Positions 1,649 to 22,894 of a stretch of 24,000 bases of DNA are shown here, piece by piece (position 1 is the stretch's first letter; every line of letters begins with the position of its first letter). The stretch lies in NCBI RefSeq assembly GCF_002924445.1, contig NZ_PIGG01000053.1:10063-34062 (forward strand), given 5' to 3'. The stretch comes from Minwuia thermotolerans. GTDB taxonomy: Bacteria; Pseudomonadota; Alphaproteobacteria; Minwuiales; Minwuiaceae. The translations under genes were made by a program, and so were the position numbers. A model generated the notes under the pieces. The model saw only the letters and a program-made list of their open reading frames with translations. It was not told the DNA's origin and searched no databases.

Positions 1649-1651
1649 GGC

Positions 1652-2914: not shown

Positions 2915-3017
2915 CGGGGCGGAACGCTGCCTCCTGTTCCATCGAATTCGCGCCTGCTCTAGCGCAGCGCGGTGGTTCTTCCAACCGGCAAGTTGCAGCC
3001 AGGACACCGGGGTTGAG

Positions 3018-5153
3018 CTAGTTCAGCCCGGTGAGACTGATCCGCACGAAGACGGAGGTGGACGCCTCCAGATCGCGGTCGCTGGTGAAATCGCGGACGA
3101 CGCCGAGCTGGAAGTCGAAACACTCGTCCTCGTAGCGCAGACCGCCTTCGAAGCGGATCGGCACGCCGCGGTCGAGGTCGCCGCGATAGGCGCCGAGGAC
3201 CTGCCAGTTCTCGGCGAAGTTTAACGTGCCTTCCGTGGTCAGCTCCTGGGTGTTGCCGACCGCCACGGCGCCGCCCACACGCGGTACGGAGATGTAGCCG
3301 AGGCTGAAACTGTACCAGTCGTCGCGAAGGCTCAGGCGATGCTCGTGCCGATCCAGGTCCGGTCCCTTCATATCGACCCGGAAACGGAATGTGTAGTCGA
3401 TCGAGTCGGTCGGCGCGATGAGCAGCCGCCCGACCACGTCGGAGAGACGGTCGTCGAGTCCGGTGCCGGGCCCGAAGGCACTGGTTTCGTTGAACCGGAA
3501 GGACTGCCCGATCAGGAACTCGCTCTCGCCCCCGCCGTCGCCATAGACGCCCATCCGCACCCCGTAATTGACGCGGGAGCCGCTCTCCACGCGGTCGAAG
3601 CCGACGAAGCGGTTGCGGTCGAACAGGTTGGCGTCGGAAAACTCGAAACTGAGCGAATCCTCGTTGGGAATATCGTTCGGGTTGGCGCCGGCCGGAGATC
3701 CGATGAGCTGCACCACCGGCTCGATCTTCTGGAAGTGCCCGTTGGCCGGTCGTACCAGCGGCAGACGCCAGTCGAGCGTCGCCTGCGGCCAGATGCGGCC
3801 CTCGTAGTAGTCGTTCTCGCTGGCGGTAGGGTCGGTGTCCTGCGCTTCGGAAACCATGTAGCCGTCGGCGCGGAAATGCATGCCGAAGGTCGTCAGACCG
3901 CCGAAGGGGTCGACGGCCTGGCGTTCCCAGGATCCGTCGAAGGACAGCCGGCGGGTGTCGCGACCGCTGGTGCGTTGCAGGGCCACGCCGCCGAAGGTGT
4001 AGTCGACCCGTCCGCCCAGCACGCCGGGGCTGAAGGTGTCCTGCCACGTCGCCAGCGGCATCACCAGTGGCGTCGCGCCGTCGTCATCGTTCTCCTGCAG
4101 GCCCTGGAAGGAGAAGAACTCCAGCCCGCGGAATCGCCGGCCATCGTAATCGGTGACATAGGCCGTCGAGGTGAGTGTGTTGCCGCCGCCGATATCGTAG
4201 ATGCGCAGATAGGTGTCGTCGCTGGCCCGGAACAGGTTGAAGCCCCAGTCGGCGCCTTCGTCGATACGAAAGTCGCCCTTGGAGCGGAAATGACCGCGGA
4301 ACTCCTTGTCGCCGGTCTGCGTGCGGCCCACCACCTCATCGACATAGGTCAGCGAGACGTCTGTATCCCAGCGCCCCGCGTCGAACTGCTGGCGGTACTC
4401 CGCCCCCAGAACCGGAAGTTCCTTGGTCAGGAAGCGTGGCGTCAGGGTCATGTCCTTGTCCTCGTCGAGGACCAGGTAGACCGGCTGTGAGTACTGGAAG
4501 CCCAGTTCGGTGGACGAGCCGACGATGGGCGCGAGCAAGCCGGACTTCCGCTCGACCGTAGGGTCGGGATGATAGAAGTAGGGCGCGTAGAAGACCGGTA
4601 CGCCGAACATTTCCAGGCGCGCGTTCTGGTATTCGACGATTTCCTTGTCCAGATCGCGCGTGACCCGGTTGGCCTTGATCTGCCAGATCGGCGGCCGGTC
4701 CGGATGTTCGGGACATTCCTCGCAGCGCGTGTAGACCACGCGCTCCAGGATCGTGCGGTTCTCGCCTTCACGGCGGGCGCGCCGCGCCGCCATGCGCGCC
4801 CGGTTGGCGAGGCGGATCTTGAGCTCCTCGACGACGCCCTGCTTGAAGTTGTCGGTCAGTTCAACGTAGTCGGCGAACAGCACGTCGCCCGAAGGTTCCC
4901 GCAACACGACATTGCCGCTGGCGGTGACGACCTCGTCGCGTTCGTTGTAGGTGACGGTGTCGGCGAACAGCACCCGCTCGCCCTGCAGGATCTCGACGTC
5001 GCCCCGGGCCGTCACCACGCCCAGTTCCTGTTCATAGATCATTTCCCGGGCCGAAAGCTCGACCGGCAGGTCGTTCACCTGCGCCGCCGCGGCGAGCGGC
5101 ATCCACAGAAAGGCGAACAGCAGCAGAATCGGGAGCGGCCTGCGCGGCGCCAT
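3018..5153 (-). CDS. lptD: LPS-assembly outer-membrane protein LptD (OstA)
   Basis: The 711 aa ORF has the signal peptide MAPRRPLPILLLFAFLWMPLAAAAQ. It has an OstA-like N-domain (ADTVTYNERDEVVTASGNVVL) and a large beta-barrel-like C-terminal part with aromatic-rich strands. Context is lptG-lptD-surA. Confidence 0.93.
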   Translation of the reverse strand: MAPRRPLPILLLFAFLWMPLAAAAQVNDLPVELSAREMIYEQELGVVTARGDVEILQGERVLFADTVTYNERDEVVTASGNVVLREPSGDVLFADYVELTDNFKQGVVEELKIRLANRARMAARRARREGENRTILERVVYTRCEECPEHPDRPPIWQIKANRVTRDLDKEIVEYQNARLEMFGVPVFYAPYFYHPDPTVERKSGLLAPIVGSSTELGFQYSQPVYLVLDEDKDMTLTPRFLTKELPVLGAEYRQQFDAGRWDTDVSLTYVDEVVGRTQTGDKEFRGHFRSKGDFRIDEGADWGFNLFRASDDTYLRIYDIGGGNTLTSTAYVTDYDGRRFRGLEFFSFQGLQENDDDGATPLVMPLATWQDTFSPGVLGGRVDYTFGGVALQRTSGRDTRRLSFDGSWERQAVDPFGGLTTFGMHFRADGYMVSEAQDTDPTASENDYYEGRIWPQATLDWRLPLVRPANGHFQKIEPVVQLIGSPAGANPNDIPNEDSLSFEFSDANLFDRNRFVGFDRVESGSRVNYGVRMGVYGDGGGESEFLIGQSFRFNETSAFGPGTGLDDRLSDVVGRLLIAPTDSIDYTFRFRVDMKGPDLDRHEHRLSLRDDWYSFSLGYISVPRVGGAVAVGNTQELTTEGTLNFAENWQVLGAYRGDLDRGVPIRFEGGLRYEDECFDFQLGVVRDFTSDRDLEASTSVFVRISLTGLN

Positions 5154-5155
5154 TC

Positions 5156-6259
5156 CTAGCCGTCCTCCAGATGGAACATGGCCGCGATGGCCGTCATGGT
5201 GGTGACCGCCGCCGGCGTCCAGGCGGCAAGCACCACGGGCAATTTGCCTGCGGAGCCGAACGCCTCGACCACGTCGGTGACGAAGAATATCGCAAACCCC
5301 GCCATCGTGCCGGCGAAGAACACAAGCCCGACGACGCCGCGGCGCACGCTGAGACGGATGCAGAAGGTTGCGGCCAGCAGGACCATCGAGGCCAGCATCA
5401 GTGGCAGGGAAAGCAGCGAATTCCAGTGCAGCCGGTGCGCGAGCGCATTGAAACCCGACTTCTCCAGCAGCTCGATGAAGGCCGGCAGTTCCCAGAACGA
5501 GAGCGATTGCGGCGGCGCGAGGCTGTCAATGATCTGCGCCACCGTCAGCCGGGTCGGCACCAGCATGGTCTCTCGCTCCTGACGCGGACGGTCCAGTTCC
5601 GTCACCACCGCGTTCTTCAACCTCCATTGCCGGTCGAACAGTTCCGCACTCTCGGCGTCGATCCTGCGCACGAAGCTGTTGTTCCGGGTAAAGGTGAAGA
5701 AGGTCGGGTTGTCCAGCGAAGTGCCCTGCGCCGAAGCGGACCAGGCATGGATCACCTGATGGCCTTCGGCGTTCACCTCCCGGAGCCAGAGGCCGGTCTT
5801 GTCGGAGACCGTGATGCGACTCGTCTCGCCCTGGAACTTGGCGCTCGCGAGCTGCTCGTACTGCCCCGTCAGGGCGGCGGCCAGAGGGTTCAGCACCGTG
5901 ATCAGAATGGCGCCGATGACAGCCGCAGACAGCACCAGGGGCGTCAGGATCTGCCAGATCGAGACGCCGGCGGCACGCGCCACGACCAGTTCGTTGGAGC
6001 GCGACAGCCGGGTCAGCGCCAGCATGCCTCCGAACAGCACAACGAATGGCCAGAGCTTCTCGATCACGGATGGCATCTTGAGCAGGGCGAATTGCACGAT
6101 CAGCCCCAGCCCGATCTCGTCGACGCCGCTGGCGCGGCGCACATGATCGATCACTTCGGCCGTGAACATGACCAGCGACAGCAGCGCGAAGACCAGGCCG
6201 GCACCGAGCAGGAATTGACGGATCAGATAGCGGGTCAGGGTGGGAAGCGTCCGCAGCAT
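5156..6259 (-). CDS. lptG: LPS export ABC transporter permease LptG (YjgP/YjgQ family)
   Basis: The track ORF is 5156-6442. I place the start at the ATG at 6259 (MLRTLPTLTRYLIRQFLLGAG...), which is 2 nt after the lptF stop. The upstream extension overlaps lptF. Motifs include SNELVVARAAGVSIWQIL. Confidence 0.9.
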   Translation of the reverse strand: MLRTLPTLTRYLIRQFLLGAGLVFALLSLVMFTAEVIDHVRRASGVDEIGLGLIVQFALLKMPSVIEKLWPFVVLFGGMLALTRLSRSNELVVARAAGVSIWQILTPLVLSAAVIGAILITVLNPLAAALTGQYEQLASAKFQGETSRITVSDKTGLWLREVNAEGHQVIHAWSASAQGTSLDNPTFFTFTRNNSFVRRIDAESAELFDRQWRLKNAVVTELDRPRQERETMLVPTRLTVAQIIDSLAPPQSLSFWELPAFIELLEKSGFNALAHRLHWNSLLSLPLMLASMVLLAATFCIRLSVRRGVVGLVFFAGTMAGFAIFFVTDVVEAFGSAGKLPVVLAAWTPAAVTTMTAIAAMFHLEDG

Positions 6260-6261
6260 GA

Positions 6262-7377
6262 TCACGCCGCCATCGGCGCCGGTCCCGGCGTCGGCATGCC
6301 CGCGCCGGCCCGCATCAGGAACAGGCTGCCGGCGATCGCGGCCAACAGCAGCACATAGACCAGCGTATTGAAGAAAGGCTCCGTCGCCGCCGCCTGGGTC
6401 AGCCCCAGTACGGCCGCCTGCAACAGGCCTGCGCTGAGGCAACCGACCCAGATACGCGCGCCGACGCCGCGCCGGTCGAACTCGCCATAGAGCACCGTCG
6501 CGATCGCCATCAGGGCGAAGGCGATGGTCAACAGCGGCAACGCCACGCGCTTGTGCCCTTCCGCCTGGATCCTGTGATAGGTCGCCCGGTCGAAGTCGCC
6601 CGGATCGATGAGGAACAGATCCTCGATCGTACGTTCCTCAATCTTGGCCACGCGCACCGGCGCATTGCTGCCTACCAGATCGATCTCGACGTTGTAGCGG
6701 TCGAAGTAGAGGACGTTGATGTTGCCGCTCTCATGATCCTTCTCCTGGCGATTGCCGTTGAGCAGCAGAATCTTCGGGCCTTCCTCGGCGCGGATCAGCG
6801 TTCCCTGCTCCGCCATCATGGTCACCGACTTGCCCGGCTCGCGCTCGTCGTGAATCAGCAGGCCGTGGAGCTCGCCGCCGGACCGCCGTTCGGCGACATA
6901 GACCGTCAGACGGGTCTTGAGCGGCGTGAACGCGCCCTCGCGCAGCACCACGGTGGAGTAGATGTACTTCCACGCGAACCGGGTGTCGCGCATGGTCGAG
7001 TTCGCCATCGGCATGAAGTAGAACGTCATCGAGGCGACGAAAACCGCGCAGAATCCGGCCAGCAGCAGGCCGGGCCCGGCCAGCGCCATGCGGCTGAGAC
7101 CGGCGGCGCGCATCACCACGAGTTCGCTGTCCGACGACATCCGCCAGTAGGCGTAGAGCATCCCGCAGAACAGGCCGATCGGGAGCGTCACAGGCAGAAG
7201 CTGCGGCAGCAGCAAGAACGAGATGTAGAAGAACGCGCCCATCGACATGTCATAGTTGATGATCTCGTCGACGAAACGCAGCGCCTGAAGGATCCAGATG
7301 ATCCCGGTCAGCACCATCGTCACGAAGGCCGTAGGGCCCGCGGCGGCGCGAATCATGTAGCCGGTCAGATGACGCAT
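6262..7377 (-). CDS. lptF: LPS export ABC transporter permease LptF (YjgP/YjgQ family)
   Basis: The track ORF is 6262-7920. I place the start at the ATG at 7377 (MRHLTGYMIRAAAGPTAFVTMVLTGIIWILQ...). The longer extension would run antisense into pepA. The motif DSELVVMRAAGLSRMAL is typical of the family, and the gene is divergent from pepA as in many proteobacteria. Confidence 0.9.
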   Translation of the reverse strand: MRHLTGYMIRAAAGPTAFVTMVLTGIIWILQALRFVDEIINYDMSMGAFFYISFLLLPQLLPVTLPIGLFCGMLYAYWRMSSDSELVVMRAAGLSRMALAGPGLLLAGFCAVFVASMTFYFMPMANSTMRDTRFAWKYIYSTVVLREGAFTPLKTRLTVYVAERRSGGELHGLLIHDEREPGKSVTMMAEQGTLIRAEEGPKILLLNGNRQEKDHESGNINVLYFDRYNVEIDLVGSNAPVRVAKIEERTIEDLFLIDPGDFDRATYHRIQAEGHKRVALPLLTIAFALMAIATVLYGEFDRRGVGARIWVGCLSAGLLQAAVLGLTQAAATEPFFNTLVYVLLLAAIAGSLFLMRAGAGMPTPGPAPMAA

Positions 7378-7552
7378 GGCGGCGGAGTATAGCGACCTCA
7401 GCGGCCTGTGAAACCCGCTTGGGATGCCTTGCCGCGTGCATCCGGGCCACCTGCGCCGTCGCAGGCCCTGGCGGACGCAAAGCGCCCCATTTACACGGCC
7501 CGGCAAAGCTTGCGATATATCTGTCCGACAGTTTTTCAATGGGATGAGACAG

Positions 7553-9058
7553 ATGGATATCTCGATTTCCGGCGCAAGCATTCCGGGCCGCGGCGTCGTC
7601 GTCGTCGGCGTCGCGAAGGACGGCAAACTGACGCCTGCCGCCAAGGCCCTGGACGAGAAGACCGAAGGCGCCATCCGACAGGTGCTGCGCGCCAGCCGCT
7701 TCACCGGCGCAAGCGGGCAGAGCCAGACCATCGCCGCGCCGCGTGGCACCAGGCTGGACCTGATCGTCCTGCTGGGCCTCGGCGAGACCAAGTCCCTGTC
7801 TTCCCATGATCTGGAACTGATCGGCGGCCGCGCCTTCAAGGCGGTCGCCAACTGCGGCGCGAAGCAGGCCAAGGTGATCATTGACGCCGAGGATCTGGCC
7901 GCGAAGTCGAAACTCACCAAGGGTGCGGCCCAGGCGCATATCGCGATGGGCGCGCGGCTGGCCAGCTACCGCTTCGACCACTACCACACGAAGCTGAAGG
8001 ACGAGGACAAGCCCTCCCTGGAGCAGCTCGCCATCGGCGCCCGCGGCGCAGCCGCAGCGCGCGACGCTTTCGCCGCACTGGACAAGGTCGTCGACGGCGT
8101 CTTCCTGACCCGCGATCTGGTCAGCGAGCCTGCCAACATCCTCTATCCCGCCACCCTTGCCGACCGCTGCCAGGAACTCACCAAGCTGGGCGTCAAGGTT
8201 GAGGTGCTGGGCGAGGCGCAGATGAAGAAGCTCGGCATGGGCGCGCTGGTCGGCGTCGGCCAGGGCTCCGAGAAGGAAAGCCGGCTGGTCGTCATGCAGT
8301 GGAACGGCGGGGCGAAGAACGACAAGCCGATCGCCTTCGTCGGCAAGGGCGTCACCTTCGACACCGGCGGCATCTCCATCAAGCCGGCCGCCGGCATGGA
8401 GGACATGAAGTGGGACATGGGCGGCTCCGCCGCCGTCATCGGCGCCATGGCGGCGCTCGCCGGACGTCAGGCCAAGGCCAACGTCATCGGCGTGGTCGGC
8501 CTGGTCGAGAACATGCCGGACGGCAACGCGCAGCGCCCCGGCGACGTGGTCACCTCCATGTCGGGCCAGACGATCGAGGTGCTGAACACCGACGCCGAAG
8601 GCCGCCTCGTGCTCTGTGACGCCCTCTGGTACACGCAGGACCGCTTCAAGCCCGAGTTCATGATCAACCTCGCCACGCTGACCGGGGCCGTCATCATCTC
8701 GCTCGGCGACGAGTACGCCGGCCTGTTCTCCAACAACGACCGGCTGGCCACGCGGCTGATGGAAGCCGGCGAGGCCGTCGACGAGAAGCTCTGGCGCTTC
8801 CCGTTGCACAAGAACTACGACAAGAAGCTGAAGTCCGACATTGCCGACATGCGCAATATCGGAAACGCCCGCGGCGCGGGTTCCATCACCGCCGCGCAGT
8901 TCCTGCAGCGCTTCGTCAACGATGTGCCCTGGGCGCATCTCGACATCGCCGGCGTTACCTGGTCCAGCAGCGCCAGGCCGACGACGCCCAAGGGCGGCAC
9001 AGGCTTCGGCGTCCGTGTCCTCGACGAACTGGTCCGCCGCCACTACGAGAGCAAATGA
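7553..9058 (+). CDS. pepA: Leucyl (cytosol) aminopeptidase PepA, M17 family
   Basis: The track ORF is 7424-9058. The likely start is the ATG at 7553 (MDISISG...) or 7544. M17 signature blocks are present: VGKGVTFDTGGISIKP, MKWDMGGSAAV, NTDAEGRLVLCDAL and ATLTGA. Confidence 0.93.
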   Translation: MDISISGASIPGRGVVVVGVAKDGKLTPAAKALDEKTEGAIRQVLRASRFTGASGQSQTIAAPRGTRLDLIVLLGLGETKSLSSHDLELIGGRAFKAVANCGAKQAKVIIDAEDLAAKSKLTKGAAQAHIAMGARLASYRFDHYHTKLKDEDKPSLEQLAIGARGAAAARDAFAALDKVVDGVFLTRDLVSEPANILYPATLADRCQELTKLGVKVEVLGEAQMKKLGMGALVGVGQGSEKESRLVVMQWNGGAKNDKPIAFVGKGVTFDTGGISIKPAAGMEDMKWDMGGSAAVIGAMAALAGRQAKANVIGVVGLVENMPDGNAQRPGDVVTSMSGQTIEVLNTDAEGRLVLCDALWYTQDRFKPEFMINLATLTGAVIISLGDEYAGLFSNNDRLATRLMEAGEAVDEKLWRFPLHKNYDKKLKSDIADMRNIGNARGAGSITAAQFLQRFVNDVPWAHLDIAGVTWSSSARPTTPKGGTGFGVRVLDELVRRHYESK

Positions 9059-9501
9059 CGGAAGTCGCGTTCTATCACCTGACCCGCAAGCCGCTGGAAC
9101 GGGCCCTGCCCGAGCTGCTGGAAAAGGTGCTGGAGCGCGGCATGCGCGCGGTGGTGCTGGCGGGCTCCGAGGAGCGCGTGCGCGGCCTGGACGCGCATCT
9201 GTGGAGCTATGACAAGGCCTCGTTCCTGCCCCACGGCGCGGCCGGCGATGGCGATGCCGGGCGGCAGCCGATCTGGCTCACCGCCGAGCCGGAGAACCCC
9301 AATGCCGCCGAGGTGCTGATCCTGGTCGACGGCCGCGACGTGGCGGACAAGTCGGATTTTGCCCGCTGTCTGGACATGTTCAACGGCCTGGACGAGGACG
9401 CCGTGGCCGCCGCCCGCGCGCGCTGGCAGGCGGCCCGTGCGGCGGGCCACGTCTGCACCTACTGGAAACAGGGCGAGCGCGGCTGGGAACGGGGCACATA
9501 A
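9055..9501 (+). CDS. holC: DNA polymerase III subunit chi
   Basis: The 148 aa ORF begins MTEVAFYHLTRKPLERALPELLEKVLERGMRAVVL...LDAHLWSYDKASFLPHG, which is a typical HolC N-terminus. It has an ATGA overlap with the pepA stop (9055-9058). The pepA-holC pair is conserved. Confidence 0.9.
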   Translation: MTEVAFYHLTRKPLERALPELLEKVLERGMRAVVLAGSEERVRGLDAHLWSYDKASFLPHGAAGDGDAGRQPIWLTAEPENPNAAEVLILVDGRDVADKSDFARCLDMFNGLDEDAVAAARARWQAARAAGHVCTYWKQGERGWERGT

Positions 9502-9614
9502 GAACATCCCCGCCGCTCACTCTGGAACGTCACCCATGAGCATTGCAGACAGGGTTTCTTCGCGGACAAAGATATTATAGAATATTGCGCATTCGCCAAT
9601 GTGTGGGAAACACT

Positions 9615-10640
9615 ATGAAATCAATATCATTTTTTAATAACAAGGGTGGCGTTGGAAAAACGACACTCACTGAAAATATCGCTGCATATTTTGCCCTAGA
9701 GAAAAAACAGAGGGTTCTTATTATTGACTGCGATCCGCAATGCAATATTACTCAACTTGTTCTAGGTGATATCAAGACTATTGATTTATATTGGCCAGAA
9801 AAAAATAACAAAGAAGAAACTAAATCAAAAACAATACTGGACGTTGTGGATCCAATTCTAAGTGGAGATGCCGACATAAATTCTCGAATAAGACCTCTGA
9901 GATCAAGCAGCAATCGTTTCGGTGTCGATCTGCTACCCGGCCATCCCCGTTTCTCAACATTCGAGGACGAATTATCAGGATCTTGGGCCGAATTGCCTAC
10001 CGGAAAGGCCGGCGGCTTCCGTGTGACAAACTGGCTACGGTCTTATTTACGCGGTTTAGAAGAAGATTACGATATTGTTTTTATTGACGTCAGCCCATCA
10101 TTAGGGGCATTAAATAGATCTGTTCTTCTTTGCTCTGACTACTTTGTTGTCCCACTTGGCGCCGATGCATTTAGTGTCCTGGGTATTCGTAATATTTCCC
10201 GCTGGATGAGCAGTTGGATTGATTATTATGAAGTAGGTCTTGAACAGTCCGACAGATTGAATCCTGGAGGTTTAGAAAAATATAGTATTATGACAGATAT
10301 TTCAATAAAGAGGGGTTTCATAGGCTTCACACTACAACAATACATTGCCAAAGCAAAAGCTGGAGTTCGGCGACCCACTAAAGCATATGAGAGAATATTG
10401 AATGATATACCCAGAGAGATAGACACTTATCTTAGCAGCTTTGTCGCGAACAATATGGCAACTCCACACCTGGGTGATGTTCCAAATCTATATAGCCTGA
10501 TTCCGATGGCGCAGAGCGCGAACGCTCCAATTATTGCGCTCGAATCTAAGGATGGGCTAGTTGGAAGTCAATTTGGACAGGCTGCACGCTACCGCAACAT
10601 TATCGGCGAATTGGCCGAAACTATCGGAGAGAGGGTATAA
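9615..10640 (+). CDS. ParA/MinD/Soj-class P-loop ATPase (deviant Walker A), 341 aa
   Basis: The track ORF is 9543-10640. I place the start at the ATG at 9615 (MKSISFFNNKGGVGKTTLTENIAAYFA), which puts the Walker A near the N-terminus as in ParA-Ib/MinD proteins. The deviant Walker A KGGVGKTT is at 9642-9665. It is followed by RVLIIDCDPQCN (Walker A') and DIVFIDVSPSLG (Walker B). Codon usage is AT-rich and unlike the host. Confidence 0.85.
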   Translation: MKSISFFNNKGGVGKTTLTENIAAYFALEKKQRVLIIDCDPQCNITQLVLGDIKTIDLYWPEKNNKEETKSKTILDVVDPILSGDADINSRIRPLRSSSNRFGVDLLPGHPRFSTFEDELSGSWAELPTGKAGGFRVTNWLRSYLRGLEEDYDIVFIDVSPSLGALNRSVLLCSDYFVVPLGADAFSVLGIRNISRWMSSWIDYYEVGLEQSDRLNPGGLEKYSIMTDISIKRGFIGFTLQQYIAKAKAGVRRPTKAYERILNDIPREIDTYLSSFVANNMATPHLGDVPNLYSLIPMAQSANAPIIALESKDGLVGSQFGQAARYRNIIGELAETIGERV

Positions 10641-11495
10641 GTGCCCGTTTCTTGGCCAAATACACTTGTCCGTGAAATAGCGGAACGAAGAGCAATTCTA
10701 TTCGTGGGCTCCGGCGTCACAAAATCGGCATTGCCCACACTTCCTAACTGGCCCGACCTATTAAGTGAACTGGCAGAGCGCGTAGATAAAAAGAAAGATG
10801 TGGCCCTTGTCAAAAGTCTGATCCGTAGAGACCGGCTTCTTGATGCCGCTGAATTGATAAATTCACTATTGTCGCCGGTTGAAAGACGGGCTATTTTTGA
10901 GAATAAATTTCTATTTACACCGCCACCTCAAGCAGAGATTTATAGATACCTACTGGATTTAGATTTTAAGGTATGCATAACCACAAATTACGATCAATTT
11001 CTTGAAAAGAATTTTGAATACCATAGCGGCGGCGCCATAGCCTACCAAGTTCGAACTTATAAATATGACAATTTTTTAGCTGATCTCAGATCTCCATCTC
11101 GGACTATTCTAAAACTACATGGGTGCATCACCGATCCGAGCAGTATCATACTGGACCGGCAGCCCTATTTTAAAGCAAAGGCCAATAATCCAGGTATATA
11201 TGATATTGTTGAAGCCCTTTCGACGGTAAATACTGTATTATTTTTTGGATACTCTATAAATGATCCCGATATTCAGTTGATTTTAGAAAGAATTCATGCC
11301 AGATCTCGAACCGATCATCCACACTATGCGCTTGTGTCTAAATTCGAGCACCCGTCTCTTCGAAAAGCCCTGAATGAAACATTTAATGTATCGTTCGTCG
11401 AATACCCCAAAGGTATACACCAGGAATTTCCGGAGGCCGTAAAAGAATTGAGAGACGCAGTAAAGGCCGAACGGGCGCGGTTCGGTATTCCGTGA
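10641..11495 (+). CDS. Stand-alone SIR2-like domain protein (SIR2_2-type, predicted NAD+-consuming effector), 284 aa
   Basis: The GTG start at 10641 directly abuts the TAA of the upstream gene, and a GGAGAGAGGG Shine-Dalgarno-like run lies at 10626-10635. Motifs are ILFVGSGVTKS (aa 19-29), CITTNYDQF (Asn116, codon 10986-10988), ILKLHGC (His160, codon 11118-11120) and VLFFGYSINDPDI (aa 199-211). This is the pattern seen in ThsA/DSR-type SIR2 domains. Confidence 0.8.
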   Translation: MPVSWPNTLVREIAERRAILFVGSGVTKSALPTLPNWPDLLSELAERVDKKKDVALVKSLIRRDRLLDAAELINSLLSPVERRAIFENKFLFTPPPQAEIYRYLLDLDFKVCITTNYDQFLEKNFEYHSGGAIAYQVRTYKYDNFLADLRSPSRTILKLHGCITDPSSIILDRQPYFKAKANNPGIYDIVEALSTVNTVLFFGYSINDPDIQLILERIHARSRTDHPHYALVSKFEHPSLRKALNETFNVSFVEYPKGIHQEFPEAVKELRDAVKAERARFGIP

Positions 11496-11614
11496 TAGAA
11501 TTGGGCACGATAATTTTTAGGATCGAACTTGTTTCAATCGCGCTTCTGAGTACGGATGGCATAAGTTTAGGTTGGTGGCTGTCACAAACCCACAAAGGGG
11601 AGGATTAGAATACG

Positions 11615-12538
11615 ATGAATAGCATCTACCACCATATCCGGGTCATGCCGCTGACCGGCGTGCTGGGCGCGGAGATCGAGGGCGCGGATCTCACAATGCC
11701 GCTGCCCGACCCGGTGTTCGAGGAGATCGAGCAGGCCTTCACCGATCATTCGGTGCTGGTCTTCCGGGACCAGGACATGTCCATCGAGGATCAGAAACGC
11801 TTTACGCGCCGCTTCGGCGAGTTCGGCTTCGAGCCCTATGTCGACACCATGAAGGAGCATCCGGAAGTCATCGAGGTCCTCAAGGAGGCCAGCGAGTCCG
11901 GCATGCTGAATTTCGGCGGCAACTGGCACTCCGACTGGAGCTTCCAGGAGGCGCCGCCCCGGGCCACCATCCTGCACGCCAAGGAGATCCCGCCCTTCGG
12001 CGGCGACACCTGTTTCGCCAGCATGTACCTCGCCTACGACACGCTTTCCGACGGCATGAAGGCCATGCTGGAAGGACTGAACGTGATGCATTCGGCCCGG
12101 CGTCCCTATGGCGTCGGCAACAAGCTGTTCGGCAAGTTCAACCGCGCCATGAAGATCCACAACACCGAGGAGGCGCATGCGGAGCTGGCCCATCCGGCGG
12201 TCCGCACGGTGCCGGAGTCGGGCCGCAAGGCGCTGTTCGTCAATCCCGTCTATTCGATCCGTTTCGAGAACATGAGCGAACGCGAGAGCCGGCCGCTGCT
12301 CGAGTTCCTGCACGCGCACGCGACCCGCATCGAGCTGACCTGCCGCGTCCGCTGGGCGCCGGGCACACTGACCATGTGGGACAACCGCTGCGTCCAGCAC
12401 AACGCCATGAACGACTATGACGGCTACCGCCGCCTGCTCCACCGCACCACGGTCAGGGGCGAACGGCCCTGGCTGGAAGGCAGGGCGCCGGGGGGCTCGG
12501 GAGAGCGCGAACCGGCGCTGGCCCAGTCCGCCGGGTAA
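11615..12538 (+). CDS. tauD: TauD/TfdA-family Fe(II)/2-oxoglutarate-dependent dioxygenase (taurine dioxygenase-like)
   Basis: The 307 aa ORF has the N-terminus ...VMPLTGVLGAEIEGADLTMPL, which resembles E. coli TauD ITPLGPYIGAQISGADLTRPL. The H-x-D iron motif is in NWHSDWSF, with a distal His/Arg region (WDNRCVQHNAMNDY...RRLLHR). An AAAGGGGAGGA Shine-Dalgarno-like run lies ~10 nt upstream. The substrate is not certain. Confidence 0.85.
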   Translation: MNSIYHHIRVMPLTGVLGAEIEGADLTMPLPDPVFEEIEQAFTDHSVLVFRDQDMSIEDQKRFTRRFGEFGFEPYVDTMKEHPEVIEVLKEASESGMLNFGGNWHSDWSFQEAPPRATILHAKEIPPFGGDTCFASMYLAYDTLSDGMKAMLEGLNVMHSARRPYGVGNKLFGKFNRAMKIHNTEEAHAELAHPAVRTVPESGRKALFVNPVYSIRFENMSERESRPLLEFLHAHATRIELTCRVRWAPGTLTMWDNRCVQHNAMNDYDGYRRLLHRTTVRGERPWLEGRAPGGSGEREPALAQSAG

Positions 12539-12563
12539 TGGCGGCGGCGGCCGCACTGAAAGG

Positions 12564-12597
12564 AAAAGGGCTCCGGATCAACTCCGGAGCCCTTTTT
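12564..12597. terminator. Bidirectional intrinsic terminator between the convergent tauD-family gene and bioY
   Basis: There is a 10-bp perfect stem, GGGCTCCGGA (12568-12577) paired with TCCGGAGCCC (12583-12592), and a 5-nt loop. An A4 tract lies on the left and a T5 tract on the right, so a U-tract follows the hairpin on either strand. Confidence 0.75.
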
Positions 12598-12619
12598 CGT
12601 GGCCGCAAGAGCGCTCAAC

Positions 12620-13210
12620 TCAGCGGCGCGACAGGCGGGCGATGAAACCGCCGAGAACCGTCGCGAGGCCCGCCGCGAGAGCCAGCTTCACGAGATCGGT
12701 GACGATGAACGGGCCGATACCGTAGGCGATCGCCATATCCACGCCCAGCAGATAGGCCAGCCAGAGCGCGCCAAGGGCCAGGATCGCGACTTCGCCGAGG
12801 AGCATGGCCGCGCCGATCTTGAGCGGGTTGCGCCACCAGCCCCGATCCGAGGCCCAGCCGACAATGGCGGTCGCGGCGACGAAACCCGCCAGGTAGCCCC
12901 CCGTCGGACCTGCCATGTAGGCGACGCCAAGGCCCTTCTCCGGGGTACCCTGGAACACCGGCATGCCGAGCGCACCCTCCATCAGATAGAGCAGGACCGT
13001 AGCCATTCCGAGGCGCAGGCCGAACGTGGCCGCGATGGTGAATACGGCAAGGGTCTGCAGGGACATCTCGACGGGCCACATGGGCACCTTCGCCTTCGCC
13101 GACATGGTCAGGATGATCGTGCCCATCACCATGAACGCAAGGAACCAGGCCGAACGCGTGAACCGATGGCTCGTTCCGATGCCGTCAAGCGGCGCTGCCG
13201 TTGATCTCAT
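12620..13210 (-). CDS. bioY: Biotin transporter BioY (ECF S-component type)
   Basis: The track ORF is 12620-13960. Only the last 196 codons, from the ATG at 13210, look genuine (MRSTAAPLDG...SLQTLAVFTIAATFGLRLGMATVLLYLMEGALGMPVFQG...GPTGGYLAGF...). The protein is multi-TM with BioY-typical blocks. The upstream extension crosses a terminator and overlaps atpF/atpF'. Confidence 0.85.
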   Translation of the reverse strand: MRSTAAPLDGIGTSHRFTRSAWFLAFMVMGTIILTMSAKAKVPMWPVEMSLQTLAVFTIAATFGLRLGMATVLLYLMEGALGMPVFQGTPEKGLGVAYMAGPTGGYLAGFVAATAIVGWASDRGWWRNPLKIGAAMLLGEVAILALGALWLAYLLGVDMAIAYGIGPFIVTDLVKLALAAGLATVLGGFIARLSRR

Positions 13211-13282
13211 GTGTTCGTACCCCCGGGATTCTTGGACAGAACGCTGCGTCGGCGGAATGGACCTCCCCGTTCCCGCCGGCGC

Positions 13283-13313
13283 AAAAAAGGGGCTCCGGCA
13301 ACGCCGGAGCCCC
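13283..13313 (-). terminator. Intrinsic terminator of the F0 ATP synthase operon
   Basis: There is an 11-bp perfect stem, GGGGCTCCGGC (13289-13299) paired with GCCGGAGCCCC (13303-13313), and a 3-nt loop. The A6 tract at 13283-13288 reads as U6 after the hairpin on the minus-strand transcript. It lies 26 nt downstream of the atpF stop. Confidence 0.75.
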
Positions 13314-13338
13314 TGATTGTTGCTTCCTTGCGGAATGC

Positions 13339-13824
13339 TCAGTGCAGGTGGCGTCCCACGCTGCCGATGGCGTCGTCGATCAGCCGGTTGCCGGCGTCGC
13401 CCTTCAGCTCTTCGCGCAGGATGCGCGCGGCCGCGGCGGTGGCGATGTCGACGGCGCGGTTGCGCACCTCGTCGATCGCCTGCTGCTCGGCCTGGGCGAT
13501 CTTGGATTCCGCCTGGGCCTTCCGGCGTTCCAGCGCGGCCTCCATGTCCGACCGCATCTTCTCGGCCGTGCGCTCGGCTTCCTCGCGGGCGTGCTCGACG
13601 ATGCGGTCCGCTTCCTGGACCGCCTCCTCGGCCTTGCGCTGGTAGTCGGCGTAGAGGGACTGCGCCTCCTCCCGGAGCCGCTTGGCCTCCTCCAGCTCGC
13701 CGCGGATGCGGTCCGCGCGGGCGTCGAGCTGCGCCACGATCTTCCCCGGCAGCTTCAGATAGATCATCAGCGCGAAGAAGAGGACGAAGGCGACGGCGAC
13801 CCAGAATGTCGGATCTGCGAACAT
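13339..13824 (-). CDS. atpF: F0F1 ATP synthase subunit b
   Basis: The 161 aa ORF has a single N-terminal TM segment (MFADPTFWVAVAFVLFFALMIYLKLP) followed by a long charged helix (EEAKRLREEAQ...). It is the last gene of the atpI-B-E-F'-F operon. Its start overlaps the b' stop by 1 nt (TGATG). Confidence 0.9.
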   Translation of the reverse strand: MFADPTFWVAVAFVLFFALMIYLKLPGKIVAQLDARADRIRGELEEAKRLREEAQSLYADYQRKAEEAVQEADRIVEHAREEAERTAEKMRSDMEAALERRKAQAESKIAQAEQQAIDEVRNRAVDIATAAAARILREELKGDAGNRLIDDAIGSVGRHLH

Positions 13825-14315
13825 CAGCGGCCTCCCTCGCGCGCGGCCGAAACCGCCTGGCTGACCCGGTCGTCCGACGGCGCCGCGCCCGACAGCTTCT
13901 GAACCAGGGCCGCGGTGACGCTGCAGGCGACGTCGTCCAGCGAGGCCAGAGCCGCGTCACGCTGCTGCGCGATCTGCTTCTCCGCCTCGGTCTGACGCTG
14001 GTCCAGTTCGGCCTCGATCTCCTGGCGGCGCTTGTCGATCTCGGCGTTCATCTCCGCCTTCATGCCGGCGACGATATTCGCCGCGCTGGAGCGCGCTTCG
14101 GCCAACCGGGCCTCGTAGTCCCGGATCGCCTTGTCGGTCTCCGACTTCAGCTCCTCGGCCTTGTCGAGGTCCGACCGGATTCGCTGCTCGCGGTCTTCCA
14201 GGATCCCGCCGATCCGCGGGATGACCACCCGCGCCATGATCAGGTAAAGGATCACGAAAGTGATCGCGAGCCAGACGATCTGGGATGCAAAGGTTTCTGC
14301 AGCAAGCTGCGGCAT
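13824..14315 (-). CDS. atpF2: F0F1 ATP synthase subunit b' (second b-type subunit)
   Basis: The 163 aa ORF begins MPQLAAETFASQIVWLAITFVILYLIMARVVIPRIGGILEDREQRI..., a b-type architecture. Duplicated b/b' subunits are typical of alphaproteobacterial and photosynthetic-type F0 operons. Confidence 0.9.
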   Translation of the reverse strand: MPQLAAETFASQIVWLAITFVILYLIMARVVIPRIGGILEDREQRIRSDLDKAEELKSETDKAIRDYEARLAEARSSAANIVAGMKAEMNAEIDKRRQEIEAELDQRQTEAEKQIAQQRDAALASLDDVACSVTAALVQKLSGAAPSDDRVSQAVSAAREGGR

Positions 14316-14364
14316 GAGCCCGTGGCCTCGCTGTTGACGTTACGTGTTCGCGTTCGCGGAAAGG

Positions 14365-14384
14365 GACGCGCCCGAAGGCGCGCC
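14365..14384 (-). promoter_or_regulatory. Intra-operon stem-loop immediately after atpE (candidate mRNA stabiliser or partial attenuator)
   Basis: The minus-strand RNA reads GGCGCGCC-UUCG-GGCGCGUC. This is an 8-bp stem with one G-U pair and a UUCG tetraloop, starting 3 nt after the atpE stop. The G-U position is an A-C mismatch on the plus strand, so the structure is specific to the atp transcript. No strong U-tract follows. Confidence 0.45.
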
Positions 14385-14386
14385 GA

Positions 14387-14614
14387 TCAGAATGCGAACA
14401 GGATCAGGAACGCGATGACCAGCGCGAACAGCGCAACGGCCTCGGTGAGCGCGAAGCCCAGCAGCACGTTGCCGAACACACGGCCGGCAGCGCCCGGATT
14501 GCGCAGCGCGCCCGCGACGAAGTTGCCGAAGATGTTACCGATACCCACGCCCACACCGGCGAGCGCGATGGTGGCCAGACCGGCGCCAATCAGCTTTGCG
14601 GCTTCAGCTTCCAT
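14387..14614 (-). CDS. atpE: F0F1 ATP synthase subunit c
   Basis: The 75 aa ORF reads [75 protein letters not shown]. It is a classic c-subunit hairpin with the conserved carboxylate (E in LTEA). Confidence 0.97.
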
Positions 14615-14684
14615 TTTCCTAAGTCCCTCTTCAATTCAGGTTGAGGATGATGATCGAAGTTCGAAGTTTCCGGCTCTCTCCGGC

Positions 14685-15422
14685 TCAGTGCCCGGGATGC
14701 AGGGCGTCGTGGAGATAGAGACAGCTCAGAATGGTGAACACATAGGCCTGGAGCAGCGCGATGCCGATCTCCAGACCGGTCAGCGCGACGATGAAGAGCA
14801 GCGGCGCCCAGCCGGCGATGATGCCCAGCGAGACGACGAAGCTGCCGAAGACCTTCAGCATGGTGTGACCGGCCATCATGTTCGCGAACAGTCGCAGGCT
14901 CAGGCTGATCGGCCGCACGAAATAGGAGATGATCTCGATCGGCACCAGGATGAACATCAGCGGCAGGGGCACGCCGGAGGGCACGAACAGTTTCAGGAAG
15001 CCGACACCGTGCTTGAAGATGCCGATCAGGGTCACACCGATGAAGACCACCAGCGCCATCGCGAAGGTGACGATGATGTGGCTCGTCGGCGTGAAGCTGT
15101 AGGGCACCATCCCCAGCAGATTGCAGAACAGGATGAAGAAGAACAGGGTGAACAGGAACGGGAAATAGGGCCGGCCTTCGGATCCCGCATTGTCCCGCAC
15201 CATGTTGGCGATGAATTCGTAACTCATCTCGGCCACCGACTGCAGCCGCCCCGGCACCATGGCCCGGCCGCGCATGCCGACGGTCAGCAGCACCGTGGTG
15301 ACGATCACCGCGATGACCATCCACAGCGCGGAATTCGTGAAGGATACGTCGACGCCGCCGATCTCCAGCGGGACGATCGGGGTGATCTCGAACTGATGCA
15401 GAGGGCTTTCGCCTGCGGCCAC
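14685..15422 (-). CDS. atpB: F0F1 ATP synthase subunit a
   Basis: The 245 aa multi-TM ORF has the conserved SLSLRLFANMMAGH block containing the essential Arg. It lies directly upstream of atpE. Confidence 0.95.
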   Translation of the reverse strand: MAAGESPLHQFEITPIVPLEIGGVDVSFTNSALWMVIAVIVTTVLLTVGMRGRAMVPGRLQSVAEMSYEFIANMVRDNAGSEGRPYFPFLFTLFFFILFCNLLGMVPYSFTPTSHIIVTFAMALVVFIGVTLIGIFKHGVGFLKLFVPSGVPLPLMFILVPIEIISYFVRPISLSLRLFANMMAGHTMLKVFGSFVVSLGIIAGWAPLLFIVALTGLEIGIALLQAYVFTILSCLYLHDALHPGH

Positions 15423-15423
15423 G

Positions 15424-15762
15424 CTATCCGTCCTCTCGTTCCTCGGCGGCCTTCTGGAACTTCATGGCCACCCTGTACACGTTCCTGATACCCACCGCGC
15501 CGCCAATCAGCAACCCGGCAAGGAAGACCCAGGGTCGCGTTCCGATCCACTCGTCGATCCACCAGCCGACGAAGCCGCAGACCAGGAACGCCGCCACCAG
15601 CTCGGCGGAGATCCGCCAGGCGATGCCGTCCGCCCTCGACCTATCCCGCGCCTCGGCCCGCTCCGGGTCCCGGCCTATGTGGCCGGACTCGCGCGCCGCC
15701 TTGATGCGGGCTTCCAGCGTCCCTACACGATCGCGCCACTTTCCGCGCTCATCGTCGCTCAT
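15424..15762 (-). CDS. atpI: ATP synthase protein I (AtpI-like small membrane protein)
   Basis: The 112 aa ORF has a charged N-terminus followed by two hydrophobic segments (ISAELVAAFLVCGFVGWWI / WVFLAGLLIGGAVGI). It is the first gene of the F0 operon, 1 nt upstream of atpB. The call rests mainly on position and topology. Confidence 0.75.
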   Translation of the reverse strand: MSDDERGKWRDRVGTLEARIKAARESGHIGRDPERAEARDRSRADGIAWRISAELVAAFLVCGFVGWWIDEWIGTRPWVFLAGLLIGGAVGIRNVYRVAMKFQKAAEEREDG

Positions 15763-16000
15763 CGACCGGTCCCGCCGGCCGACGCCGCGCTCCGCTCAAG
15801 GCGATGATTGATGATCACGGTACCCATGGCCCGAACGTGATCCGGTTCGGAAGCGGGCGCAACCTATGACGCCCCCGGGGGGTGGTCAACGCGGCCCCAG
15901 CGGACCAAATGACGCACCGATCCGCACTTTGGCCGCGCCGCTCCCGGGGTCCACGATGGCCCGCAGTAGAAGCCCGCAAGCCAGCGAGGAGCGCCCAGCC

Positions 16001-16411
16001 ATGGCCACCGTCCGACCGCCCCGAGACGCCGAGACCGACCCCCGCGTGAAGGCTGTCTTCGACGACATCCGAACGACGCGCGGCACGGACTTCATCAACA
16101 ACTTCTGGCGTTACCTGGCGTTCGATCCGGGCCTGCTGGAGCAGGTCTGGACCGACGTCCGCGACGTCATGGCGAAGGACAGCGCGCTGGACGGCAAGAC
16201 CAAGGAAATGATCTACATCGCCGTCTCCATCGCCAATTCGTGCGACTATTGCATCCATTCCCACACCGCGTCCGCACGCGCCCGGGGCATGACCAGCGCG
16301 GAGTATGCGGACCTCCTGCGGGTGGTCTCCACCGCGGCGCGGACCAATCACCTGGTCAACGGCATGAAGGTGCCGGTCGACCCGGAATTCGACGCCGACC
16401 ACGCCGGGTAG
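16001..16411 (+). CDS. Carboxymuconolactone decarboxylase (AhpD-like) family protein
   Basis: The track ORF is 15866-16411. I prefer the ATG at 16001 (MATVRPP...) because a GAGGA run lies 10 nt upstream, but the starts at 15956 and 15866 cannot be excluded. The CMD-type core is TKEMIYIAVSIANSCDYCIHSHT, containing a C-x-x-C-x-x-H motif. Confidence 0.75.
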   Translation: MATVRPPRDAETDPRVKAVFDDIRTTRGTDFINNFWRYLAFDPGLLEQVWTDVRDVMAKDSALDGKTKEMIYIAVSIANSCDYCIHSHTASARARGMTSAEYADLLRVVSTAARTNHLVNGMKVPVDPEFDADHAG

Positions 16412-16419
16412 CGCGGGAC

Positions 16420-16941
16420 CTACGCCGGTCCGCAGGCGATGTCGTCGCGCTCACGCTCGACACTGTCCCAGTCGGCCGGACGCCGGACCAGACGGCGGAT
16501 CAGGACCACGCCCTTCTCGCCCGGGGCCACGACCGCCCGGCCGCCGAGGTCCGCCGCCTGCGCCTCCGTGGCGAGCGTCACCTCGCCGGCTGCGAGGTCC
16601 GCGCCGGTCAGGGTGAGGAAATTCTCCGTGTCACCGCCATAGGCGGTGACCGAAGCGCGGTCGCCGGTCTCGCCGAAGACGATCCGCACCGGACCCGCGG
16701 CAAGGTCGAAGGGGCAGATCGAGTAGGCCAGATCGGGCGCCGGGCGCGGCAGCATGCGGGCCGCCGCGTCGACGGGCGCGGCGTGGATCATGCGGTTGTA
16801 GCCGAAGCGGTCGCCGGTCTCGGCAAAGACGCGCTTCATCGCCATCCACGGCATCACGGCAACGACGACGACATGGATCAGCGCCGAGGCCAGGGCCGTG
16901 AAGACGGCCCAGCGGAAGATGGTCCGCGCGTTCAACGGCAT
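16420..16941 (-). CDS. Membrane-anchored DUF1254-like protein
   Basis: The 173 aa ORF has an N-terminal TM segment (IFRWAVFTALASALIHVVVVAVM). The block MLPRPAPDLAYSICPFDLAAGPVRIVF...SVTAYGGDTENF resembles the DUF1254 core (P-N-x-D-T-L-Y-S...D-L...G-P-v-v-l). The family was recognised from memory and not searched. Confidence 0.6.
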   Translation of the reverse strand: MPLNARTIFRWAVFTALASALIHVVVVAVMPWMAMKRVFAETGDRFGYNRMIHAAPVDAAARMLPRPAPDLAYSICPFDLAAGPVRIVFGETGDRASVTAYGGDTENFLTLTGADLAAGEVTLATEAQAADLGGRAVVAPGEKGVVLIRRLVRRPADWDSVERERDDIACGPA

Positions 16942-17522
16942 GCCCCCCGGTCGATGGCAAAGAGCGGCGCTTCATCGAGCCGGCGCCAGACCGTCTCGTC
17001 GGGGCCGTGGATTCTGAGGGTGAGGCTGAAGAACCCGCCCGCCCCCTCGACGGCGAGGCGGTTGGCGGCGCCCGGCGGCCCGCCGACCGTGATCTCGATC
17101 CGTCCGTCGCCCCGGAGTTGCACCGTCCCCGCGTCTACCGCGCCGCCCCGTCCCGGATCGGCAACCAGGAACTGGTCGCGGCCGTAGAGCGCCAGCGACC
17201 ACCACTCGCCCGCCGGCGGCCGTCCGGTCAGATGATACAGGCATTCCTCCACCAGCGGCTGGCCCCGGCTGTCGGTGTCGGCGGTGAAGTACAGCGCCTG
17301 CGCCCGCGGCAGGGCGAACAGACCGGTCATGGCCTGGGCCGTCCGCAGCCAGGGCGTCGGGCTTTCCTCGCCATAGGTGGCGTGCGTCCGCCAGGGCCCG
17401 TTGTGGAAGGATTCGACTTCGGCGACCGTGCGCACGGCATAGAGCGCGGATCCGACGCCGAGCACGCTCGAAACCATGAGAACCGACAGCACGAAGACCA
17501 CACGGCTCCAGTCGAAGTTCAT
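16932..17522 (-). CDS. Membrane-anchored DUF1214-like protein
   Basis: The track ORF is 16932-17693. I place the start at the ATG at 17522 (MNFDWSRVVFVLSVLMVSSVLGVGSALYA...), with a GAGGGGG run upstream and 11 nt after the esterase stop. The block ALYFTADTDSRGQPLVEECLYHLTGRPPAGEWWSLALYG resembles the DUF1214 core. It overlaps the downstream gene by 10 nt. Confidence 0.6.
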   Translation of the reverse strand: MNFDWSRVVFVLSVLMVSSVLGVGSALYAVRTVAEVESFHNGPWRTHATYGEESPTPWLRTAQAMTGLFALPRAQALYFTADTDSRGQPLVEECLYHLTGRPPAGEWWSLALYGRDQFLVADPGRGGAVDAGTVQLRGDGRIEITVGGPPGAANRLAVEGAGGFFSLTLRIHGPDETVWRRLDEAPLFAIDRGACR

Positions 17523-17532
17523 CCCCGCCCCC

Positions 17533-18462: not shown

Positions 18463-18490
18463 CGGCGTGGGCGGACAAAGGCGGCGCGGA

Positions 18491-19846: not shown

Positions 19847-19848
19847 GA

Positions 19849-20979: not shown

Positions 20980-21012
20980 GCGTCTCGGGGTTCCTGAATC
21001 TGGTCCGCCACG

Positions 21013-22041: not shown

Positions 22042-22082
22042 GCCGGGGAGGATATCGCAACCGGTCAGGATTGCCAGCCCTC

Positions 22083-22883: not shown

Positions 22884-22894
22884 GGTACTGGCGA

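Follow-up and report, generated by a model that had tools for sequence, protein, structure and literature searches.

A ParA/Soj-fold ATPase coupled to a SIR2 protein: a candidate mobile conflict cassette in Minwuia thermotolerans and other bacteria

Introduction

A SIR2 domain with catalytic Asn and His residues serves as an NAD+-depleting effector in Nezha (SIR2-HerA), Thoeris (ThsA), DSR1/2, SIR2-APAZ/pAgo and KomBC, and each of these effectors is governed by a separate sensing or NTPase component and encoded in a compact, mobile cassette. In this study we have analysed a 24,000-nucleotide stretch of the genome of Minwuia thermotolerans (contig NZ_PIGG01000053.1; hereafter the window), in which a gene for a ParA/Soj-type ATPase (9615-10640) is followed by a gene for a SIR2 protein that resembles those effectors. 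However, the partner here is a deviant-Walker-A ATPase of the ParA/Soj fold and not a HerA hexamer, a SLOG or STAND protein, a pAgo or KomB. The comparative genomics makes a strong case that the two genes belong to a modular NTPase-plus-SIR2 conflict system with a putative ParA-fold regulator, and the system is apparently undescribed.

ParA-fold proteins are ATP-dependent monomer-dimer switches; dimerisation of ParA/Soj creates a surface that binds DNA without sequence specificity, and ATP hydrolysis is set off by partner proteins. The type Ib Soj proteins of T. thermophilus (1wcv) and H. pylori (6iub) have the core fold, both lysines, the Walker A' and Walker B motifs and a C-terminal 'SLIPxAQ...P(I/V)' element in common with the window ATPase. 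However, Soj is ~85 residues shorter and only ~20% identical, whereas the window ATPase, which has neither ParB nor parS beside it, adds a DPQCN motif and Trp-rich insertions that are conserved. A closer relative is DIP2308 of Corynebacterium diphtheriae (PDB 3pg5, a structural-genomics entry), which is homologous over its whole length, is enlarged in the same way and shares the motifs FNNKGGVGKTT, DCDPQCN, LPGHP and GxTxxxY. It is, however, only ~36% identical to the window ATPase, and its nearest relatives among the loci that we examined (L129 and L130, 68% identical to 3pg5) are without SIR2. No published function or partner for DIP2308 was found in the literature.

The closest described arrangement is a dyad of a ParA/Soj-like ATPase and a HEPN protein of the MAE_18760 family, which was predicted to be a toxin-antitoxin pair by Anantharaman et al. 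(2013; PMC3710099). Like the window pair, this dyad joins two genes around a SIMIBI ATPase of the ParA/Soj type, but its effector is a HEPN RNase, whereas the window pair has SIR2 instead and so falls outside the dyad as defined. A term search of PMC3710099 returned no occurrence of the word SIR2, and no test of the 2013 antitoxin hypothesis was found in the literature. Similarly, full-text searches of the openly accessible literature turned up no account of a ParA-SIR2 pair, and a paper on hotspots in P. aeruginosa makes no mention of the cassette.

Results

The ATPase and SIR2 genes as one unit

A scan for homologues, restricted to one genome per species, returned 79 loci. A SIR2 homologue lay directly downstream in all 24 loci at which the ATPase was at least 47% identical to that of the window over its full length; two of these loci were incomplete, with one SIR2 gene degraded and the other cut by the end of the contig. 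The 24 paired loci span at least seven phyla and come from Alpha- and Gammaproteobacteria, Verrucomicrobiota, Bacteroidota, Paenibacillus, Planctomycetota, Desulfobacterota and Geothrix. Of 28 intact loci measured, 27 had the start of the SIR2 match at -13 to +16 nt from the ATPase stop codon, and one at 69 nt. Furthermore, when each protein is compared with its counterpart in the window, the two sets of identities co-vary closely (r = 0.97, 28 loci), and the pairing is still present at 37% ATPase identity, on a plasmid of Vibrio ponticus. Thus the ATPase and SIR2 genes are one translationally coupled, conserved and co-diverging unit across many phyla. The initial annotation of the window had reasoned that constant company with ParB/parS in close homologues would mark the ATPase as a leftover of a partition system; the close homologues keep company with SIR2 instead.

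The ATPase reading frame runs from an ATG to a TAA stop (10638-10640) over 341 codons, with GGGAA placed 5 nt upstream of the ATG. The protein begins MKSISFFNNKGGVGKTT; K10 is its signature lysine and K15 its Walker A lysine, both in NNKGGVGKTT, with Walker A' at D38/D40 and Walker B at D158. In Pfam it matches AAA_31 (2.7e-33) and CbiA (1.8e-13). K10, K15, T16/T17, D38, D40, D153 and D158 were invariant in 29 orthologues and in 13 relatives of 24-50% identity, and the catalytic machinery is therefore under selection. None of the catalytic motifs of a ParA-type ATP-sandwich dimer is missing from the predicted protein.

The enlargement of this protein could also be located. In a phmmer comparison with Soj (1wcv), residues 3-47 aligned with Soj 8-51 and residues 141-194 with Soj 103-154, leaving a surplus of ~42 residues between Walker A' and Walker B and ~44 after residue 194; similarly, the AAA_31 match covers 199 residues of the ATPase against 165 positions of the model. 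In an AlphaFold2 model built with 36 homologues as input (mean pLDDT 87.8, pTM 0.89), residues ~60-73 form a variable loop rich in Lys and Glu that is modelled with low confidence, residues 185-215 form a helix of 31 residues, and residues 216-285 make up an additional region with a disordered loop (244-251). The acidic C-terminus, ...IIGELAETIGERV, lies within a long helix (318-340). The initial annotation had pointed to the dimer-sandwich lysine in the translated frame, to a length beyond that of typical ParA proteins, and to extra sequence between Walker A' and Walker B and in the C-terminal third; all of this agrees with the alignments and the model.

The second protein of the cassette consists essentially of a single SIR2_2 domain (PF13289, 1.2e-29) and includes no sensor domain. 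The GTG start codon of its gene directly abuts the ATPase stop (TAAGTG, 10638-10643). Its best matches among solved structures are the NADases ThsA (3.1e-14) and KomC (8.1e-12), followed by DSR2. At least 93% of 29 orthologues retain residues G23 and G25 of the Gly-rich loop, N116 and D118 of TTNYD and H160 of KLHG, which align with those of ThsA and KomC; the same residues serve the SIR2 defence NADases. The protein thus carries the Asn, His and Gly-rich loop of the defence NADase class and is a predicted NADase. As a separate observation, the ATPase and SIR2 reading frames share one frame with only the TAA between them, such that read-through would yield an ATPase-SIR2 fusion; this may be coincidence, as the chance is one in three.

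Comparison with catalogued defence systems did not place the cassette in a known type. In PADLOC 2.0 (2023) the SIR2 protein matched the SIR2 parts of PDC-S25, ThsA, LmuA-SIR2 and Dsr1/2, that is, generic SIR2 models only, and no model was found for the ATPase beyond a match of its P-loop to PDC-M28B, which was likewise seen for the HEPN-, Schlafen- and RelA-linked relatives described below. SIR2-HerA (Nezha) was rejected: SIR2 is present, but the ATPase had no HerA match in PADLOC and only the P-loop match to PDC-M28B (E 3.7e-4). Thoeris was also rejected, as the ThsA models align over the SIR2 part alone (profile positions 12-230 of 478), the protein of 284 amino acids has no SLOG domain, and the island contains no TIR gene.

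Family assignment of the ATPase

The fold of the ATPase is that of ParA/Soj, on the evidence of the K10/K15 signature and of Foldseek matches to Soj/ParA structures (~1e-12). The best solved relative is DIP2308, matched over residues 1-335 by phmmer (E 1.2e-64) and with a template-modelling score of 0.74-0.80 in Foldseek; type Ib Soj/ParA (E ~1e-12), McdA and type Ia ParA come after it, with MinD, FleN and NifH lower. Three named functions within the wider family were considered and rejected. For MinD, model TIGR01968 scored 23.4 bits against a cut-off of 212.9, the C-terminus is acidic, no min genes are present, and MinD structures rank below Soj, ParA and McdA. For BcsQ, TIGR03371 scored 44.4 against 157.85 bits and aligned over residues 1-42 only, and there are no bcs genes nearby; the name 'cellulose biosynthesis protein BcsQ' that JGI attaches to homologues is an automatic label. 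FlhG (FleN) stood at rank 50 in Foldseek, and no flagellar genes lie nearby.

The fold, the motifs and the fact that the best curated matches are partition ATPases could be taken to mean that the gene is a decayed partition locus, an orphan ParA that lost ParB and parS and came to lie beside an unrelated SIR2 gene by chance. However, every curated partition model scored far below its cut-off (NCBIfam, in bits: ParA_partition 60.9 against 180, RepA 53.3 against 348, SopA 26.2 against 725, PrgP 44.8 against 400). The ParBc Pfam domain was absent from the window and from seven annotated contexts, the gene downstream of the ATPase being SIR2_2, and a crude motif scan for the ParB box, which has low sensitivity, was positive at 4 of 197 loci and in no case at the downstream position typical of ParB. 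The Vibrio ponticus plasmid, the one true plasmid examined, carries a separate, genuine ParA/ParB pair of its own. Moreover, the SIR2 adjacency is kept across phyla with co-divergence of the two proteins, and the catalytic residues are under clear purifying selection. We regard the decayed-locus account as effectively refuted. An intact type Ib ParA/Soj partition ATPase was rejected on similar grounds: no ParB, no parS or repeat array, curated scores far below the cut-offs, and a conserved SIR2 linkage.

Other partners of the enlarged ATPase clade

The enlarged relatives share the motifs FN[NH]KGGV[GS]KTT, DxDPQCN and LLPGH together with W201, G237, Q241, P305 and G317. These were invariant in 13 diverse members, and the window ATPase is homologous to them over its full length, both insertions included. 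When it was scored against one representative of each 50%-identity cluster, 118 clusters were matched at E <= 1e-30.

Relatives at 26-35% identity, of equal length and with the same motifs, have other tightly linked or overlapping partner genes (Table 1). The HEPN-linked ATPases among our loci are full-length relatives of the window ATPase (26-30% identity) that share the clade motifs; their partners were typed by a Pfam RiboL-PSP-HEPN match, so that the likeness to the MAE_18760 HEPN proteins holds at the level of the dyad only. The ATPases with a RelA_SpoT partner are 27-33% identical, and these partners resemble toxic small alarmone synthetases. A further relative, 68% identical to 3pg5, lies just downstream of a gene for a PLD-helicase protein, which suggests that the crystallised DIP2308 possibly belongs to yet another effector pairing. 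In one metagenomic protein of 731 amino acids (P0176) the Schlafen AlbA_2 and HATPase_c_4 domains are fused to the ParA-like ATPase in a single polypeptide, and this fusion is direct evidence that an ATPase of this clade and its neighbour act as one machine.

A census of 160 ATPase clusters, formed at 90% identity from a sample biased towards relatives of the query, gave 66 with SIR2, 35 with Schlafen/AlbA_2-HATPase_c_4, nine with HEPN, four with RelA_SpoT and two with helicase/PLD partners. The initial annotation had proposed examining whether relatives consistently stand next to effector genes, and had suggested that the ParA fold is repurposed to work with the SIR2 protein. SIR2, HEPN, Schlafen/AlbA_2, RelA_SpoT and PLD-helicase genes do adjoin the relatives, and the constant pairing at the 24 loci, the swapped effectors and the Schlafen fusion together support the suggestion well.

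Solo relatives also exist. The P22-like Salmonella phages ST160 (NC_014900; L086 3995-5068), SE1 and ST-32 carry one, which in ST160 is a full-length relative of 357 amino acids (28% identity) annotated as a 'ParA-like partition protein' and lying between the c2 repressor gene and gene 24, with a DUF3024 gene upstream and no adjoining effector gene. Exclusion genes such as bstA occupy this interval in P22-like prophages. Two further observations concern the relatives themselves. Those at L199-L210, and others, are flanked by small open reading frames (ORFs) of 93-95 amino acids with no Pfam match, and a relative in a filamentous Pf1 prophage of Pseudomonas (Orf317; AY324828, L088 3073-4026) has, as annotated, no Walker A region and begins just before DADPQCN; the gene may be truncated or have become a pseudogene, or its start may have been mis-called.

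The variety of partners is also what would be expected of a toxin-antitoxin pair, in which the SIR2 protein is constitutively toxic, the ATPase neutralises it by nucleotide-dependent binding or phosphorylation, and the main role of the cassette is the stabilisation of mobile DNA and not the sensing of phage. This is the main rival to a defence function, although compatible with one, and is the model proposed for the ParA/Soj-HEPN dyad in PMC3710099; we consider it unlikely, but worth keeping in view. One ATPase clade serving several toxin classes (HEPN, RelA_SpoT, Schlafen, SIR2) would resemble a promiscuous antitoxin, the ATPase gene precedes and is translationally coupled to that of the toxin, the cassette is found beside other toxin-antitoxin pairs and on mobile DNA, the solo genes of the P22-like phages could be orphan antitoxins, and the 2013 prediction for the HEPN dyad points the same way. 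However, a 341-residue enzyme with full catalytic machinery would be an unusually elaborate antitoxin, and a Schlafen partner encoded upstream of the ATPase or fused to it is not the usual antitoxin layout. The characterised SIR2 defence effectors (ThsA, DSR2, SIR2-HerA, SIR2-APAZ and KomC) stay inactive until a partner or ligand switches them on, a behaviour that fits less well with a constitutive toxin.

Table 1. Features of the window and partner genes, contexts and variants at related loci. L numbers are locus identifiers.
Feature	Position or locus	Strand	Remarks
Low-GC island	9520..11610		~2.1 kb, two genes only; ~42% GC vs 66% in flanks; between holC and tauD-like gene
holC	9055-9501		5' neighbour of island
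tauD-like dioxygenase gene	11615-12538		3' neighbour of island
Cassette leader	9502..9614	+	AT-rich 9572-9587 ATATTATAGAATATTG; GGGAA 9605-9609
ParA/Soj-clade deviant Walker A ATPase, enlarged 'DPQCN' subfamily	9615..10640	+	341 aa; AAA_31 match, 3pg5 full-length match
Stand-alone SIR2_2 protein, proposed NADase effector	10641..11495	+	284 aa; PF13289 1.2e-29
HEPN (Pfam RiboL-PSP-HEPN)	downstream of ATPase relative
Schlafen AlbA_2 + HATPase_c_4 protein	L025-L027		upstream, overlapping ATPase start; ~35 clusters
RelA_SpoT protein	L232, L242, L246, L253		220-280 aa; directly downstream; IMG/VR viral contigs
PLD + ResIII helicase + DUF3427 protein	L129 1912-5974		972 aa; just upstream of 3pg5-like ATPase; metagenome contig
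Cassette in P. aeruginosa	between pdxB and aceK		with integrase fragment and GmrSD type IV restriction gene
Cassette in Ensifer			adjoins integrase/Prim-Pol island holding a second SIR2 protein
Cassette in Acetobacter, one side			type I restriction-modification, MNT/HEPN-type pair (NTP_transf_2 + NTase_sub_bind), integrase
Cassette in Acetobacter, other side			MazEF and transposases
Cassette in P. oryzihabitans			after ribonucleotide reductase small-subunit gene
Cassette in Brevundimonas			after thiC
Cassette in JGI metagenome contig			among GGDEF and succinate dehydrogenase genes
Methyltransferase-ATPase-SIR2 three-gene variant	L085 3905-6919		Salmonella Infantis NZ_CP148876.1
Further methyltransferase-linked loci	L013, L102, L103, L104, L177-L179

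Mobility and surroundings of the cassette

The cassette has a lower GC (guanine plus cytosine) content than its flanks in all 26 other genomes compared, and thus in 27 of 27 with the window included, and its chromosomal site differs from genome to genome. Defence or mobile-element genes form its neighbourhood in three of six informative genomes (P. aeruginosa, Ensifer and Acetobacter), and the P. aeruginosa ATPase is listed as the same protein in 249 blocks of the collection index. Viral contigs yielded 80 loci, which reduced to 51 non-redundant ATPase clusters, 19 of them SIR2-type, and a DNA-level search of E. coli genomes found no ATPase homologue. The cassette is therefore horizontally mobile, with a partial defence-island context.

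The same neighbourhoods bear on a third account, in which the SIR2 protein is a deacylase or ADP-ribosyltransferase that the ParA-like protein positions or regulates, the two forming a housekeeping or regulatory pair with no role in conflict. SIR2 folds do include true deacylases such as CobB, and several cassettes lie amid housekeeping genes. However, the patchy, horizontally transferred distribution and foreign GC content, the presence of the cassette on prophage-like contigs and in defence islands, the assignment of the SIR2 protein to PF13289, nearest to the defence NADases, and the exchange of the partner for HEPN, Schlafen or RelA_SpoT among relatives all argue against it, and we consider a housekeeping pair very improbable.

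A variant of the cassette has a third gene. In eight of 83 SIR2-type loci a type II (N6/N4) DNA methyltransferase gene stands upstream of the ATPase gene, at a distance of no more than 23 nt or overlapping it in seven of the eight, and these methyltransferases are of two different sequence types. The linkage is a hint that fits an input from the state of the DNA.

In M. thermotolerans itself, a consensus promoter scan of the leader (9502-9614), a putative promoter region, gave no convincing sigma-70-like site. The other ORFs scanned in the window belong to housekeeping Pfam families or to no Pfam family; besides holC and the tauD-like gene, the genes identified were pdxA, surA, lptD, lptF/G, pepA, bioY, those for ATP synthase F0 subunits, an OmpA/MotA-like gene and an inositol monophosphatase gene. 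The initial annotation had described the ATPase as lacking ParB, parS and any replicon context. The first part stands, since Pfam, repeat, tRNA and Rfam scans gave no sign of ParB, of parS-like repeats or of replicon genes within the window. The second does not hold in full, as the cassette is itself a mobile island and elsewhere occurs on prophage-like contigs, on plasmids and in defence islands. No tandem repeats were found in 8500-12600; repeats in 9300-11800 were only short, chance-level direct or inverted ones, with no centromere-like array and no convincing flanking direct repeat. There was no Rfam match in 9000-12000, and no tRNA or integrase was found in the window as a scar of insertion. 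A cassette-free empty site was not found either, identical HolC and ATPase proteins occurring only on the source contig.

Two further observations concern the remainder of the window. Three consecutive ORFs on the minus strand of a housekeeping region (18491-21692) encode a protein with an OmpA-family C-terminal domain (451 amino acids), a weakly MotA/ExbB-like protein (376) and a protein with no Pfam match (238), and could form a stator or Tol-like module, unrelated to the cassette. In addition, long ORFs that overlap are numerous on the two strands of 1-9500 and 11600-24000; one, at 7250-9043 (-), lies over pepA, and another, at 13317-15488 (+), over genes for ATP synthase. They are the usual artefacts of DNA of 65-70% GC and not genes.

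Discussion

In addition to placing the ATPase of the window in an enlarged 'DPQCN' clade of the ParA/Soj fold, we were also able to assign it a candidate biological setting. We consider it likely that the ATPase is one part of a conflict module of two genes, complete in itself and spread by horizontal transfer. This would most likely be an abortive-infection system against phage, in which the SIR2 protein would be the NAD+-consuming effector. The evidence for a conflict module comes from several directions: synteny, co-divergence and coupling of the two genes, effector swapping and fusion in relatives, conserved catalytic residues in both proteins, mobility, defence context, and occurrence on viral contigs.

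Within such a candidate defence or conflict module, the ATPase would act as the regulatory or sensing subunit of the SIR2 NADase, and its ATP-dependent monomer-dimer switch would control the effector, perhaps on DNA in the manner of ParA/Soj dimers. We infer a resting complex that keeps SIR2 off. A cue from the phage, in the form of DNA or of a protein that changes the nucleotide state, might then alter the nucleotide- or DNA-bound state of the ATPase, such that SIR2 would be released or activated, NAD+ would be depleted and growth of the infected cell would stop. Because the SIR2 protein has no sensor domain, the family-specific insertions of the ATPase (~48-140 and 185-285) are the obvious candidates for the surfaces that would bind the effector and the cue.

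Several points weigh against this conflict-module interpretation. DNA binding by the ATPase is assumed by analogy with ParA/Soj. The order of the genes, with the ATPase first and the toxin second, suits a toxin-antitoxin pair equally. The ATPase is more conserved than the SIR2 protein (80% against 59% identity, for example), whereas a phage sensor that evolves fast would usually show the reverse. Furthermore, 44 of the 160 ATPase clusters have no classified partner, and about half of the genomes inspected, the window included, hold the cassette alone amid housekeeping genes.

A broader and more speculative possibility, which we rate as doubtful, is that the DPQCN clade is a general, highly promiscuous ATP- or DNA-state switch of bacterial immunity that licenses at least four or five unrelated suicide effectors (SIR2 NADase, HEPN RNase, Schlafen-like nuclease, RelA/SpoT toxin and PLD-helicase). 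The methyltransferase-linked variants would then tell self from foreign DNA by its modification and respond with NAD+ depletion in place of DNA cleavage, and the solo copies of P22-like and other phages would be exclusion genes or else decoys that disarm the versions of the host. If this were true, the logic of restriction-modification would be at work without a restriction nuclease.

In summary, if the ATPase-SIR2 cassette does protect against phage, the ATP-sandwich dimer of the ParA/Soj fold would be a new class of regulator in SIR2/NAD+-depletion immunity. ParA proteins are among the best understood of molecular switches, and the mutational toolkit developed for them (signature lysine, Walker A and Walker A' dimer-trap mutants) would be directly applicable to the cassette ATPase, whose hosts include clinically relevant ones. 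Since SIR2, HEPN, Schlafen-like and RelA/SpoT effectors all occur with this type of ATPase, solving one member would probably account for the switching of all of them; it would also probe the 2013 proposal that ParA/Soj-like ATPases are antitoxins. A conflict function, if correct, would give a role to a widespread family that includes a structure from 2010 (3pg5), to a gene that is common in P. aeruginosa isolates, and to the methyltransferase variant of Salmonella.

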